Shown in pieces: positions 1 through 6,957 of a DNA stretch of 7,198 bases. The stretch lies in IMG/VR virus record IMGVR_UViG_2698536458_000011; one strand, given 5' to 3'. The stretch is from a virus. Its lineage: Duplodnaviria > Heunggongvirae > Uroviricota > Caudoviricetes. Numbering within the stretch: the first letter of the stretch is position 1; every line of letters begins with the position of its first letter. Below the pieces are notes generated by a model. That model did not search any database, was not told the origin of the DNA, and saw only the letters and a list, made by a program, of their open reading frames with translations. The translations under genes were made by a program, and so were the position numbers.

Positions 1-58
1 TTGAACCAGCGACCTGGCGATTATGAGTCGCTCGCTCTCACCACTGAGCTAAAGGGCC
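1..58 (-). tRNA. Partial tRNA (5' 58 nt; the 3' end lies beyond the window start), identical to the matching part of the tRNA at 2422..2497; anticodon CAU
   Basis: Bases 1-58 are identical to 2440-2497. The reverse complement gives GGCCCTTTAGCTCAGTGGTGAGAGCGAGCGACTCATAATCGCCAGGTCGCTGGTTCAA, with acceptor, D-arm and CAT anticodon loop in canonical positions. Confidence 0.75.
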
Positions 59-2421: not shown

Positions 2422-2497
2422 TGGTGGCCCTTGCTGGATTTGAACCAGCGACCTGGCGATTATGAGTCGCTCGCTCTCACCACTGAGCTAAAGGGCC
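2422..2497 (-). tRNA. tRNA with anticodon CAU, 76 nt with encoded CCA; resembles E. coli tRNA-Ile2 (ileX/ileZ-like), tRNA-Met not excluded
   Basis: Reverse complement: GGCCCTTTAGCTCAGTGGTGAGAGCGAGCGACTCATAATCGCCAGGTCGCTGGTTCAAATCCAGCAAGGGCCACCA. 7-bp acceptor stem GGCCCTT/AAGGGCC, GTTCAAATCC T-arm, CAT at positions 34-36, 3' CCA. Differs at only a few positions from the ileX sequence as I recall it. Confidence 0.9.
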
Positions 2498-2599: not shown

Positions 2600-3454
2600 T
2601 TATGACGAATTTACCACAGATTCCGGAAAAATCAACCTAGTTACCTTTTTTAACTGCCGCTCAGCCCATGCTTCTTCAATATCAAACCGGGTCACCAGCG
2701 CATCATAGAATTTCTTAACTGTTTTTTCCCATGACGCGCGTGTTATCTGGTTTGTCACCTCGCATATAGCATTAAATGCCTCCGTTGATGGTAGTCTTTC
2801 ATAGCCACGACCACCACAACGCTGGCAGTCTCTGATAACAGGCATACCACGTTTTACCGACTCTTCACGATGAATGGCGACACCACGCCCACGGCAATCC
2901 TTACAGGCGGTGGAAACCTCACCCTTTCCGCCACACTCCGGACAGGCAACTTTTACCACCTCCCTGACTTTTTTCCATTCTTCCCAGTAAGACGGATACA
3001 CACCTTTCGTACACTTTGCCCATACCGGCGGCTTACCATCCGGATACTGGATCTTGTTTGTAAAAACCTCGCTTTCAATAAATTTTTTTCCGTGACAGCA
3101 GGGGCACTGTTTTTTGCTCGCCGCGCTACGGGCATAATCTTCAAACGCATACGAAGCCATAATACGCATCACTGCCGGTTTTATTTCTGCCGGGAGTTTT
3201 CTTAACGCCGCCACGCGATCACACCGACTGAGTGCATATTCTGTCAGCAATTCTGTTGCCCGCTCTCTGTCATTCATACTAATGCCCATTTTCCCAAGGA
3301 ACGCAGAAACCCCCATCTCAGCCCGATTCTGTGTCATGCCCTGCGCGGCCATCACATCAGTGATACTCAGCGCATCTTTCGACGTTGAGGCCGATGCATC
3401 AGTCAGGCCGGGGGATTTTGGGGAGTAGTATTTCGGTAAATCTTCCAGTTTCAT
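2600..3454 (-). CDS. Q-like late antitermination protein (QuuQ/Q82-type family suspected), 284 aa, with four DnaJ-type CxxCxGxG repeats
   Basis: ATG at 3454 overlaps the rusA stop (ATGA). The position, directly after rusA and before a terminator plus tRNA, is the canonical Q slot. The N-terminus MKLEDLPKYYSPKSP resembles Q-like prophage antiterminators from recall. Repeats at aa 117-124, 171-178, 184-191, 210-217. Confidence 0.65.
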   Translation of the reverse strand: MKLEDLPKYYSPKSPGLTDASASTSKDALSITDVMAAQGMTQNRAEMGVSAFLGKMGISMNDRERATELLTEYALSRCDRVAALRKLPAEIKPAVMRIMASYAFEDYARSAASKKQCPCCHGKKFIESEVFTNKIQYPDGKPPVWAKCTKGVYPSYWEEWKKVREVVKVACPECGGKGEVSTACKDCRGRGVAIHREESVKRGMPVIRDCQRCGGRGYERLPSTEAFNAICEVTNQITRASWEKTVKKFYDALVTRFDIEEAWAERQLKKVTRLIFPESVVNSS

Positions 3455-3825
3455 TTTTTGACCTGCTCTTCATGCATTATGGGGTAAATCTTCACCCCCA
3501 GACGTCCACCAGATACTGGCTGACCACGAACGATATTGATTTCATCAAACTGCTCATCGTCCATTAACACTCCCGCATGTGTCAGTGCATCCAGTGGTGC
3601 TTTCAGGATATTGTCCAGGTCACGACGGCGCTTATCCGGTGGCTCTGCAATAATCTTTATCGCCAGTCTTCCGGACAGGCTTAATTTCAGTCGCTGCTGA
3701 CGGACAATAAGCGCCACATCCCGGCGATAACGCTCACCGGCTTTTGATACAAAATATGTGTTGTCACGACGTCGCCAGTAAGTATTCACCGTCGGCGGAT
3801 AAGGTAAAATAAACTCATGGCGCAT
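3451..3825 (-). CDS. rusA: Crossover junction endodeoxyribonuclease RusA (Holliday junction resolvase), 124 aa
   Basis: RusA family hallmarks: LPYPPTVNTYWRRR near the N-terminus, RRRDLDN, DAL..DDEQ, GGRL. AGGAGG Shine-Dalgarno 10 nt upstream of the ATG at 3825. Confidence 0.85.
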   Translation of the reverse strand: MRHEFILPYPPTVNTYWRRRDNTYFVSKAGERYRRDVALIVRQQRLKLSLSGRLAIKIIAEPPDKRRRDLDNILKAPLDALTHAGVLMDDEQFDEINIVRGQPVSGGRLGVKIYPIMHEEQVKK

Positions 3826-4082
3826 CAGCGCAGCACCTCCTGCACCAGTTTTTCAAACTTTCCGACTCTGGTTTCCAGCTCTGCCACACAGTCCACCAGC
3901 TCATCTACTGCTTTCTGTGCGCGATGCTTCGCCTGCATCAGTTCCCGAAGCGCGGGTACCATATCTTTACGGATAGCGTCTTTTGTTATGCCCGTTTTTT
4001 CGAGTTGTTCAGCATGACGCAGCATTTCCTGCGCGTGTTTACGCAATTGTTCAGGGGTAAAAGTCATTGTCTGGTTGTTCAA
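3825..4082 (-). CDS. Hypothetical small protein, 85 aa from TTG at 4082 (80 aa from ATG at 4067); predicted helical/coiled-coil
   Basis: GGAG sits 8 nt upstream of the TTG; the stop TGA overlaps the rusA ATG (TGATG). Charged, helix-forming composition (EQLRKHAQEMLRHAEQLEK...). It sits between the truncated and intact rusA copies. Confidence 0.5.
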   Translation of the reverse strand: MNNQTMTFTPEQLRKHAQEMLRHAEQLEKTGITKDAIRKDMVPALRELMQAKHRAQKAVDELVDCVAELETRVGKFEKLVQEVLR

Positions 4083-4206
4083 AAGAAACGCTCCATCTTA
4101 CTGCTGTCAGTTCGTTTATTACTGTATCTGCGCGGATTGCCGGGCTTCATGGGAGTGGAAAGCACCCGTGCACTTTCCTGGTCCACAGGCAGAAAATGTC
4201 CGTAGN

Positions 4207-4365
4207 GGACAGGCTTAATTTCAGCCGCTGCTGGCGAACAATAAGCGCCACTGCCCGGCGATAACGCTCCCCGGCTTTTGATACAAAATATGTGCTGCCA
4301 CGACGACGCCAGTAAGTGTTCACCGTCGGCGGGTAAGGTAAAACAAATTCTATGCGCTCGGTCAT
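4207..4365 (-). pseudogene. Truncated rusA remnant (N-terminal ~52 codons only)
   Basis: The ORF starts MTERIEFVLPYPPTVNTYWRRRGSTYFVSKAGERYRRAVALIVRQQRLKLSLS, then loses RusA similarity exactly at the ambiguous base n4206. DNA 4207-4353 is ~90% identical to 3673-3819. Its ATG directly follows the DUF968 gene stop (TAA-ATG). Confidence 0.75.
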
Positions 4366-5424
4366 TTATGCTTTCCACTTCAGAACACCCGAATTTCTCG
4401 CGTGCATTAAAAAACGAATCAGCAACAACAGCTGACTGCCGTGTTTCTCTTCAAAATCTTTTACTCCGGCATGTAGTTCGTTACGGCATTTACGGCATAA
4501 CGGAATAACAAACAAATCATCAGCCTTTGTTCCCATCCCTCCCAGTCCATGACCAATGATGTGATGCGGATCATCTGCCTGATTGCCACACGTCATGCAT
4601 TTCTGCGTTTTTACCCAGCGCGTGTATACAGGCATCTCTTCCCGTTGTGATTTCTGGCGCTGGAGATACTGAGCCGGTGACTCCGGATCAACGGCAATGC
4701 TGACCACCGTCTTTTCCTGTGGTGGGTTCTGTTGCTGGTGGACGTGAGGCAGTAACGCAATATTTTTTGTGCGCTGCTTCAGTATGCTGGTGGCTGTCTG
4801 CTCTCCCGGTATGATGTCGCTTTCACTGTACACAGAGCGAATTTTTTCCGCACGCAACCCCAGCGAACGACGTAATACCGCTTCCGGTAGCGCGTCCGCC
4901 ACCTGATTGCGGACCGCCCACCAGGATAATTCAGCCAGAGATAATTCACGCTCCTGCGTACCGCTTATTGCGTGACCGATGACGTCAATCATCCATGCTG
5001 ACAGGTTTTGATGAGCAAGTTGCTCGAGTGATTCGGATGTCTGGTCACGCAGCTGGTTGTCGCAGTGCCAGCACAACACCATTGCGCCGGTACCATAACG
5101 GTGAATGACGGTTTCGCTGTGATGATAATCGCCGTGTGGCCACTGGCAGGATTTAATATGGCGCAACAGCCAGTCAGACAATGCACCAGCACCACCAGCA
5201 GCACGAATCACCCGTGCGTTACTGAAAAACGGCAGCAATGTTTTGTCTTCCACCAGCGGCTGGCGAGCGGCAGGAACGACCCCGGACGGCAGATTACGCA
5301 TGCTTTTTGGTTCCGGCTCCACCAGTATTCTGCCGTTATGGAATGCTGACATTGATTCACGGCCTGGCTTAACGATAACCAGACCGAGTTCCGGTACCAG
5401 AACAGGTCGAAGTAATACCCGCAC
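4366..5424 (-). CDS. DUF968/YdfU-like prophage protein, 352 aa, with a C-terminal Cys/His-rich (HNH-like or zinc-ribbon) motif
   Basis: Long ORF with ATG at 5424 preceded by GGAGG (spacing only 2 nt, so the true start may differ). C-terminus CMTCGNQADDPHHIIGHGLGG...CRKCRNELH. Size and position upstream of rusA match YdfU-type proteins of E. coli prophages as I recall them. Confidence 0.75.
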   Translation of the reverse strand: MRVLLRPVLVPELGLVIVKPGRESMSAFHNGRILVEPEPKSMRNLPSGVVPAARQPLVEDKTLLPFFSNARVIRAAGGAGALSDWLLRHIKSCQWPHGDYHHSETVIHRYGTGAMVLCWHCDNQLRDQTSESLEQLAHQNLSAWMIDVIGHAISGTQERELSLAELSWWAVRNQVADALPEAVLRRSLGLRAEKIRSVYSESDIIPGEQTATSILKQRTKNIALLPHVHQQQNPPQEKTVVSIAVDPESPAQYLQRQKSQREEMPVYTRWVKTQKCMTCGNQADDPHHIIGHGLGGMGTKADDLFVIPLCRKCRNELHAGVKDFEEKHGSQLLLLIRFLMHARNSGVLKWKA

Positions 5425-5499: not shown

Positions 5500-5781
5500 T
5501 TATCCAGTGACGGTAGTCGAGGCTAAGGGCTTTTTTAACCTCGCATCCGCGCCTGCGGTAACACTGAATGAGCCATTCGGCCTGTTCTTCAGTGCATGGG
5601 GGATGCTGGTACCAATCAGATTTAAATGCGTGAGAGCGCCGCCCGTGCCTGCTGGCAAAGACGGCTGAATTATCAGAATTGTGTAGTCTGGAAGGCAGTG
5701 GCTGACAATAGCGCCATTCTCAACGCGCACAGTATAGAGGCCATCTTCACTAAAAATTTCACGTAATTCTTCGATTTTCAT
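5500..5781 (-). CDS. Hypothetical prophage protein, 93 aa
   Basis: ATG at 5781 with a strong Shine-Dalgarno (GGAAGGA, 8-nt spacer); same strand as neighbours. The C-terminal half is Gly/Thr/Ala-rich with no recognisable motif. Confidence 0.5.
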   Translation of the reverse strand: MKIEELREIFSEDGLYTVRVENGAIVSHCLPDYTILIIQPSLPAGTGGALTHLNLIGTSIPHALKNRPNGSFSVTAGADARLKKPLASTTVTG

Positions 5782-5863
5782 CAACAGAATCCTTCCAGAT
5801 AAATAGCACTCCCCTGTTCGGGGTCCATCCCTCTTCTCCCTGCGCGCTACTTAAGTATTTTTG

Positions 5864-6001: not shown

Positions 6002-6157
6002 TTACTCCTCAGGTTCGTAAGCTGTGAAGACAGCGACCTCCGTCTGGCCGGTTCGAATTCGTACCTCGCAGAGGTCTTTCCTCGTTACCAGTGCCGTCAC
6101 TATGACGGTTAAACAGATGACGATCAGGGCGATTAACATCGCCTTTTGCTGCTTCAT
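6002..6157 (-). CDS. hok: Hok-family type I toxin (HokD/RelF-like), 51 aa
   Basis: Translation MKQQKAMLIALIVICLTVIVTALVTRKDLCEVRIRTGQTEVAVFTAYEPEE is a canonical Hok sequence (single transmembrane helix, conserved C-terminal Cys). AAGGAG Shine-Dalgarno 9 nt upstream of the ATG at 6157. Confidence 0.9.
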   Translation of the reverse strand: MKQQKAMLIALIVICLTVIVTALVTRKDLCEVRIRTGQTEVAVFTAYEPEE

Positions 6158-6214
6158 AGCCTGCTTCTCCTTGCCTTTCGGCACGTAAGAGGCTAACCTA
6201 GATTTGCCGTTCAT
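6002..6214 (-). CDS. mok: mok-like reading frame (in-frame N-terminally extended, 70 aa) that mediates hok translation
   Basis: ATG at 6214 opens a 70-codon frame that contains hok in frame, the same geometry as known Mok/Hok pairs (e.g. MokC/HokC). GAGG lies ~10 nt upstream. Confidence 0.55.
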   Translation of the reverse strand: MNGKSRLASYVPKGKEKQAMKQQKAMLIALIVICLTVIVTALVTRKDLCEVRIRTGQTEVAVFTAYEPEE

Positions 6215-6333
6215 AGATTGAGCCTCAGATTAATGTTAAGCGTCTTGCCGGACGCGTAATGTTAACTGGGGCTTTTCTCTATCTGCCTTTTGGTGTTCAT
6301 GCCTGAGACAGATAGCCTCAAGCACCCGCTGCA

Positions 6334-6368: not shown

Positions 6369-6452
6369 TTATCCCCAGCGGCAAATCGAATACACCACCA
6401 GCGCCACCGCCATCGCAATTCCTACCGTTGTTAATGCTTCAGGCCAGGTCAT
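6369..6452 (-). CDS. Putative 27-aa hydrophobic peptide ([27 protein letters not shown])
   Basis: Not in the supplied ORF track (too short). ATG at 6452 with a GGAGGA Shine-Dalgarno 9 nt upstream, overlapping the stop of the 114-aa ORF (ATGA). One predicted transmembrane helix. Ends just upstream of the hok promoter. Confidence 0.4.
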
Positions 6453-6793
6453 CGTAAAATATCCTCCACGCTTATCAGTCCGTTCCGCTCCAGATAACTC
6501 ATCGCCTTATCCGGTAATTTGCAGTCTGGCTTCGCTTTCCTCAGTTGCCAGGTTAACTGCTTTACCAGCATGGTTAACTCATCGACCAGACGCTGATATC
6601 CCACTGGTTTGTATTCATGCAATTTACCGGCTGGCTCTGCTGCCAGCGATACCAGTGCGATTTCCAGAACAGCAATATCCATCTTATATGTGCGGATGAT
6701 GTCATGGTCGATTGTGCCCGGTATGCACAGTCTCTGTGCTTCAATAGTCTCCTCTGCGTGAGCTATTAACTGCTCTCTGGTAAAAGTCGTCAT
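6449..6793 (-). CDS. Hypothetical protein, 114 aa; paralog of the upstream 55-aa ORF
   Basis: ATG at 6793 overlaps the stop of the 55-aa ORF (ATGA). Shares an MTTxT N-terminus and the motif [10 protein letters not shown] with the 55-aa ORF ([10 protein letters not shown]). Plus strand 6633-6661 matches 6836-6864 at 25/29 nt. Confidence 0.65.
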
Positions 6794-6957
6794 GCCGTAG
6801 CCCCTTCTTGATATTTTTCAAACCAGAACACAACCGGCTCTGCTTCCAGCGATGCCAGCGCAATCCGTGCCAGTTCCATTTGTTCACCACGGGTAAGCCC
6901 GTTTTCAAGCGGGTTTTTAATGAACAATTCAATACGTTCTTTGGTAATAGTGGTCAT
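6790..6957 (-). CDS. Hypothetical small protein, 55 aa ([55 protein letters not shown])
   Basis: Not in the supplied ORF track. ATG at 6957 lies 10 nt after the stop of the upstream partial ORF; its stop overlaps the next start (ATGA). Paralogous to the N-terminal half of the 114-aa ORF. Confidence 0.5.

Follow-up and report, generated by a model that had tools for sequence, protein, structure and literature searches.

A conserved single-helix phage protein encoded at the end of a replication block: a candidate oligomeric accessory of replication

The window analyzed here, a stretch of 7,198 nucleotides from a member of the Caudoviricetes (IMG/VR record IMGVR_UViG_2698536458_000011), contains a genuine, conserved coding gene under strong purifying selection, whose 85-residue product is predicted to be one long helix. 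We read this gene as the one that closes a phage replication block, and its product as a non-enzymatic, oligomeric accessory of replication. To this statement as a whole we give a probability of about 0.5, a figure that is a compromise over its parts. The anatomy and context of the gene as described below are very probably right, and it is rather probable, judging from the structure predictions, that the product is a non-enzymatic oligomeric binder. That it serves the phage replication module specifically is a tentative proposal, to which we give clearly worse than even odds. The sequence and its family are already known (phiP27 L20, WP_001064800.1, PHROG 2565), though uncharacterized. The gene and its surroundings are as follows.

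2600..3454, minus strand: antiterminator Q gene, 284 aa, PF03589, overlapping the rusA stop
3451..3825, minus strand: intact rusA, 124 aa, PF05866 (E=1.8e-16), its ATG overlapping the stop of the next gene listed
3825..4082, minus strand: the gene under study, TTG start; helical product of 85 aa, the same as WP_001064800.1, orthologous to phiP27 L20 and belonging to PHROG 2565
4079..4203, minus strand: DnaB-like replicative helicase gene, 3' end only (about 41 codons and the stop), by homology
4091..4094, minus strand: GGAG Shine-Dalgarno-like motif, 8 nt upstream of the TTG and within the helicase coding remnant, read directly
4203..4205, no strand given: TAG, first bases of an IS3-family (IS2-like) terminal repeat, by comparison with IMG/VR contig L009
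4206, no strand: single N, read as a scaffold gap; contig L009 has 770 nt between the flanks
4207..4365, minus strand: first 53 codons of a second rusA (rusA_B; the intact copy is rusA_A), full length at 126 aa in L009
4366..5424, minus strand: DUF968/HNH gene, part of a block DUF968-rusA_B-Q' and not of the block of the gene under study

An earlier reading made from the letters of the DNA alone (the sequence-only reading) had placed here a strongly charged, alpha-helical protein of 80-85 aa whose stop overlaps the start of rusA, and this description held. The reading frame lies at exactly 3825..4082, on the minus strand (the strand was absent from that description), and gives 85 aa from the TTG or 80 aa from an internal ATG. 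Its TGA shares one base with the ATG of rusA (TGATG). The protein, MNNQTMTFTPEQLRKHAQEMLRHAEQLEKTGITKDAIRKDMVPALRELMQAKHRAQKAVDELVDCVAELETRVGKFEKLVQEVLR, has 14 acidic and 15 basic residues and a computed pI of about 7.9. Going by the sequence, the TTG is the real start. The GGAG-N8-TTG layout is also found in phage ASU11, whose allele has no internal ATG, and relatives in Hafnia and Salmonella have GTG or ATG at the equivalent codon. Coding status was assessed in 81 related loci, which comprise 35 distinct DNA variants of the gene; in all 35 the gene begins with TTG, ends with TGA and is free of internal stops. Variable sites in these loci are distributed 16/10/53 over the three codon positions, and dN/dS is 0.034 against the phiP27 L20 allele and 0.19 against the more distant one of ASU11. 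The loss of the reading frame in related sequences, which the sequence-only reading had named as evidence against itself, was thus not found. Two overlapping plus-strand ORFs (3817-4017 and 3924-4205) were rejected, since the 16/10/53 pattern fits the minus-strand frame, and a scan of the region against Rfam found no RNA family.

At the protein level, the strongest matches were to two PHROGs of unknown function, 2565 (E=1.2e-32, protein residues 2-84 on profile columns 121-203 of 204) and 2539 (E=1.4e-17), the former also matched by relatives from Salmonella, Klebsiella and Hafnia. The family is small and confined to enterobacteria: a search of 1.84 billion representative proteins yielded only 33 clusters at E <= 1e-3, including a few spurious repeat proteins; source names are all "hypothetical" or "bacteriophage protein". 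The best Pfam match was BLOC1_2, at 20 bits against a cut-off of 33.4, nothing in NCBIfam came near its cut-off, and PADLOC returned only noise of the coiled-coil type (E=0.003-0.005) and no defense component. When the same three scans were applied to the protein together with its longer relatives, nothing rose above threshold and the matches were coiled-coil noise. Against PDB sequences, a profile search matched designed helical bundles only, at E >= 0.02, and Foldseek matched the single-helix model to nothing in the PDB, as expected for a lone helix. The profiles of the nin-region proteins NinB, NinE, NinF, NinG and NinH and of Ren were all below threshold, so that a clear match to a known nin-region protein, the other outcome named as counting against the sequence-only reading, was not found either. 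The protein, which that reading had not recognized, matches no characterized family.

Members of the family come in two architectures. The first is a stand-alone protein of 80-93 aa, found in several genera; the second is the C-terminal domain of proteins of 170-265 aa, such as gp10 of Shigella phage 75/02 Stx. A long form (P0147) modelled with AlphaFold2 (mean pLDDT 76) has first a winged-helix domain (residues 8-80, with pLDDT values of about 80-90 for the most part) and a small zinc ribbon, from which a disordered linker leads to one long helix at residues 169-236. The winged helix weakly resembles the PadR, BlaI and RTP regulators (best E=0.04), and the zinc ribbon matches Lar-like, endonuclease VII and HNH ribbons in PHROGs. 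Genes for the long forms belong to the leftward operon, where they come after that of the N antiterminator and are remote from the replication genes, and none of the 33 phage records in which the family was located, each with it in one place, carries both a short and a long form.

The immediate neighborhood has to be read with care, since the window is a scaffold: contig L009 holds different amounts of sequence at its Ns. The contig matches both flanks of the N at 4206 (100% over 1218 nt and 99.6% over 804 nt) and has between them an extra 770 nt, with the rest of the full-length rusA_B, a 5' fragment of Q (the first ~69 codons of the gene), another "n" and pieces of insertion sequences that match the IS21-family (istB) and IS3-family transposase regions of E. 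coli genomes. Judged against the contig, the N at 4206 corresponds to at least 770 nt including IS sequence, the N at 1200 to 886 nt and the run of 477 Ns at 1861-2337 to 151 nt, and all three are, by this comparison, scaffold gaps. The junction as written at 4206 is spanned in none of 5426 complete E. coli genomes, where all matches end at the N. This is the more practical outcome for the window: its single Ns hide several hundred bases or more, apparent truncations that adjoin them are not to be read as biology, and contiguity should not be assumed for features beside them.

The 123 nt between the gene and the N at 4206 are not spacer but the 3' end of the helicase gene, which matches at 99.5% the helicase 3' end in E. 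coli FDAARGOS_944 and whose TGA overlaps the TTG of the following gene as TTGA. The helicase homology stops at 4203 and is followed by AG and the N, after which homology to rusA picks up mid-gene. In L009, an IS3-family end (...GGGGCCAGTCTA), which we take to be the IS2 terminus, adjoins the helicase remnant, and the TAG of the window is its first three bases. Positions 2026-2580 of the contig hold, in order, the Q 5' fragment, the 3' end of an IS21-family istB and the IS3-family (IS2-like) end at the helicase remnant, a content that points to an IS-mediated joining of two prophage blocks. The true order is then likely to be DUF968 - rusA_B (full length) - Q' :: IS elements :: 'helicase - gene under study - rusA_A - Q, with two prophage-type blocks joined via insertion sequences within the window, an IS element having cut the helicase down to a remnant of ~41 codons at its end. 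Nothing is left in the window of the early promoter region of the prophage block to which the gene belongs. The gene itself is intact, with its Shine-Dalgarno motif, in a decayed, IS-rearranged prophage, where normal expression may have been lost.

Other features of the window are recorded here in their own right. A hok/sok type I toxin-antitoxin locus lies at 6002-6327 (minus strand), with a Hok/Gef ORF at 6002-6214 (PF01848, E=3e-23) and the sok antitoxin RNA at 6152-6327 (Rfam RF01794, 112 bits). Downstream of Q there are a complete tRNA gene (2425-2497, minus strand) and another cut by the window edge (1-58, minus strand), which is the usual tRNA cluster of Stx-type prophages. Q itself has a sub-threshold match to PF00684, the DnaJ CXXCXGXG zinc finger (E=3.8e-7, 30.7 bits against a cut-off of 32.7). 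Between hok and the DUF968 gene, a 94-aa ORF (5500-5784, minus strand) matches PHROG 340 over its first 30 residues only; the same stretch of L009 (310-588) also has an ORF, of 92 aa and in a different frame, and the 94-aa one may be a frameshift or a wrong gene call. Two overlapping small ORFs at 6449-6793 and 6790-6957 (both minus strand; PHROGs 660, 60 and 3323, uncharacterized) have similar N-termini (MTTFTREQL.. and MTTITKERI..). The start of the first is also similar to that of the gene at 3825..4082 (MTFTPEQL...), with 16 of 33 residues identical in BLASTP (E=6e-4 over 33 residues), although hhalign gave this pair a probability of only 2.6%.

The arrangement from which the window derives can be seen in intact loci. 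The protein is identical to RefSeq WP_001064800.1, labelled hypothetical in E. coli FDAARGOS_944 and CFSAN029787, and 94% identical to L20 of phiP27 (NP_543072). Intact loci have the order Rha/Ash-type regulators, DnaC-like ATPase, DnaB-like helicase and then the gene under study; the full-length helicase homologue has 463 aa (PF03796 and PF00772), and its stop overlaps the start of the next gene by 4 nt. Of 87 loci surveyed, 72 have a helicase frame that runs for at least 400 codons without a break up to the TTGA overlap; in most of the other 15 the helicase is interrupted by contig ends, IS elements or frameshifts. Downstream, the gene whose start overlaps the stop is far less constant: of the 87 loci, 42 have an 82-type Q (PF06530) there, 26 a full RusA and 18 a RusA remnant, with one further locus having something else, and in phage ASU11 a DUF968/HNH gene follows. 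Among 5426 complete E. coli genomes, the gene was found in 349 (386 places, all chromosomal) and the helicase 3' region in 354 (389 places), so that within E. coli the two are essentially 1:1. Considering this co-occurrence and the variable downstream gene, the stable unit is helicase plus small gene, with recombination joints just after the latter. In E. coli the gene is, on the evidence of these loci, the last member of a phage replication block formed by a DnaC-like loader, a DnaB-like helicase and itself.

Some of these joints can be read in detail. In 18 of the 87 loci (L015, L017, L019-L022 and others) the stop is followed by a short rusA remnant (MRHEFVLPW...) fused to unrelated sequence, then by a NinH-like ORF (assigned by reading the sequence) and an 82-type Q. 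RusA and Q both begin ATGCG at the TGATG overlap. These junctions suggest a recurrent recombination joint at the stop of the gene.

The block is carried by lambdoid prophages of the phiP27-like and Rha/Eru7 types, Stx1a- and Stx2a-converting phages among them. Papers on the typing of Stx phages put the carriers among Rha/Eru7-type phages (PMC8951638, PMC8044961), and the Eru7 reference phage Stx2_14040 (LC567818.1) has the gene at 68% identity. One of these papers states that nothing is known of replication proteins in Eru-type phages (PMC8951638). A literature search by accession and phage name found nothing on the gene, and both papers are silent on it.

Outside E. coli the picture is different. 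In Citrobacter, Kosakonia, Phytobacter and an Enterobacteriaceae MAG, no homologue of the gene lies within 2.5 kb of helicases that are 64-69% identical; what follows them is Q (directly so in Phytobacter, L098) or another gene, and such a helicase does not, therefore, need the gene. In a Salmonella subgroup (93 aa), the gene comes directly after a P2 gpA-type replication initiator (PF05840) and precedes a DUF968 gene. In Hafnia phage yong2, it does not follow a helicase but sits between PerC plus a hypothetical gene on one side and a Dam methylase plus RusA on the other. What these positions have in common is that they come directly behind the replication genes, where the nin-like region begins. 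Gene and helicase also differ in their rate of change: between the two E. coli alleles, protein identity is 67% for the small gene and 94% for the accompanying helicase (dS of 1.24 versus 0.51), and since the small gene diverges much faster they do not share one common history.

The product is predicted to be structurally simple. AlphaFold2, run with an alignment of 50 sequences, returned a continuous helix over residues 10-84 (mean pLDDT 88, pTM 0.49); the model is of a single chain and carries no information on oligomeric state. In the same alignment, hydrophobic occupancy recurs most strongly every 3.5 residues, with a sharp spectral peak of power 2.05; the power is 0.71 at 3.6 residues and no more than 0.28 at any other period tried. 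The core positions from 37 to 84 keep an unbroken 3-4 spacing. This amounts to a predicted heptad repeat along the helix, which we read as a coiled-coil signature; an isolated helix of 75 residues would be unstable on its own. Conservation down to about 27% identity extends to the polar residues E11, R22, D35, K39, P43, Q56, D60 and D64. By the heptad register that we infer, Q56, D60 and D64 lie outside the core, which would suggest a specific binding surface besides that for self-association.

Since there is neither a catalytic nor a DNA-binding fold, the protein most likely works, as far as the model goes, through protein-protein contacts as a homo-oligomeric coiled coil, and as predicted it cannot by itself bind DNA through a known fold. 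A DksA/Gre-like coiled coil with an acidic tip formed by D60 and D64 was considered and rejected, as no hairpin was predicted and there was no zinc finger and no profile match; the heptad repeat also runs straight through residues 55-84.

What we propose for this oligomer is a role in replication. The protein would be made together with the DnaB-like helicase, and the oligomer would modulate, tether or stabilize the helicase/loader complex or, alternatively, act on the contact of this complex with host replication proteins. Three things favor this role: where the gene stands in its operon, the overlap that would couple its translation to that of the helicase, and the fact that gene and helicase go 1:1 in E. 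coli. The Salmonella subgroup argues for it as well, with a replication initiator of another type upstream. Against it stand the related helicases that lack the gene, the faster divergence of the latter, the yong2 locus, where it does not follow a helicase, and the long forms, in which the same domain is encoded after N and far from replication genes. The replication role is a low-confidence proposal from sequence and context.

Much of the same evidence bears on a possible though doubtful alternative, a dispensable host-takeover or anti-defense accessory at the end of the replication block that would bind a host target via the conserved polar face of the helix. The helicases of other genera that do without the gene, and its fast evolution relative to the helicase, are what such an accessory would show; moreover, the domain recurs at the C-terminus of winged-helix proteins whose genes follow N and neighbor kil, gam and recT, and whose zinc ribbon is like those of the Lar-like restriction-alleviation and endonuclease VII proteins in PHROGs. 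However, that similarity is generic and belongs to a different domain, no PADLOC match had any weight, and in E. coli the gene goes essentially 1:1 with the helicase, with no promoter or terminator of its own and a G+C content like that of its neighbors.

It is distinctly improbable that the short protein is a stand-alone dimerization helix that pairs with, and poisons, the long winged-helix forms of other phages or prophages as a kind of inter-phage interference. PadR, BlaI and RTP proteins dimerize through C-terminal helices, and it is these that the winged helix of the long forms resembles. In the model of the long form, winged helix and zinc ribbon are joined by the disordered linker to the very helix with which the short form aligns, K39, P43 and D64 being invariant, and no single record among the 33 has both forms. 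Short and long forms are, however, only 30-38% identical, which is low for a specific hetero-pairing, and the fold matches of the long forms are weak (best E = 0.04).

The sequence-only reading had gone in another direction, to a moron that had entered between two rusA copies, one truncated and one intact, and was functionally coupled to a rusA-Q unit. We regard this as highly improbable, although in the window the stop of the gene does overlap the start of rusA and relatives do differ in whether the gene is present between helicase and Q. The truncation is an artefact of the scaffold: from the comparison with L009, rusA_B seems truncated only owing to the gap at 4206. Nor does the gene make up the segment that separates the two copies, where the helicase end, 3 nt of the IS end and the N are also found. 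The supposed coupling fails on the 87 loci, in which the constant partner is the upstream helicase (72/87) and the downstream one may be Q, RusA or a RusA remnant. As to the moron itself, the pattern of presence and absence stands, as the gene is kept after the helicase in E. coli and absent from related helicase loci in other genera, but separate signals and a distinct base composition do not. Promoter-like sites were absent from 3300-4500, and the terminator-like hits near the gene lay inside rusA or DUF968 or straddled the artefactual N, with none credible in a flanking position; G+C is 0.48-0.51 across the gene and 0.48-0.53 in its neighbors. The gene is not a classical moron. It is part of the rightward early operon and has no separate signals there: its TTG overlaps the helicase stop, and its TGA the ATG of whichever gene comes next.

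Finally, a functionless relic, either the C-terminal fragment of a longer gene or a chance ORF, might be suspected from the PHROG profiles, which have ~200 columns of which the protein covers only the last ~80, but it is hardly credible for a gene under strong purifying selection, with conserved start codon, Shine-Dalgarno motif and stop, that is present in 349 complete E. coli genomes and stands alone as an 80-93-aa gene in several genera.

The replication accessory that we prefer would matter for its location, the cI-to-stx interval of common Stx-converting prophages: if it tunes replication there, toxin dose could be affected, and beyond this it is one more conserved hypothetical phage gene. 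A broader version, which we think unlikely, would make the ~75-residue helix an uncharacterized phage effector module. Its stand-alone form, translated together with the DnaB-like helicase, would control replication or a host factor in the widespread Rha/Eru7-type Stx prophages, influencing induction and Shiga-toxin output, and the long winged-helix forms would deliver the module to DNA.

Among known systems, the closest is phiP27 L20 (WP_001064800.1 in RefSeq), which has the same length and the same place directly after a DnaB-like helicase gene. The phiP27 locus differs from the window in that the helicase of the latter is a 3' stub and RusA, rather than the Q-like gene of phiP27, comes downstream. 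The proteins of the nin region of lambda and P22 (NinA-NinH, Ren) are comparable in lying between the replication genes and Q, in their similar size and in looking dispensable, but there is no sequence relationship to them, the only strong PHROG matches being 2565 and 2539.

The long forms of PHROG 2539, such as gp10 of Shigella phage 75/02 Stx (YP_009226842.1, 237 aa), are homologous over their C-terminal ~80 residues, with 35-38% identity; K39, P43 and D64 are shared by all and A24, L41 and D60 by nearly all, and in both cases the region is predicted to be one long helix. Unlike the protein of the window, they have an N-terminal winged helix and usually a 4-Cys zinc ribbon, and are encoded in the leftward operon, after N instead of after a helicase. 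Their predicted winged helix followed by a long C-terminal helix recalls regulators of the PadR/BlaI/RTP type, from which the short protein differs in having no winged helix, and to which the fold matches of the long forms are weak (E 0.04-0.5) and confined to the winged helix. By analogy with these regulators, the helix shared by the short and long forms suggests an oligomerization element.
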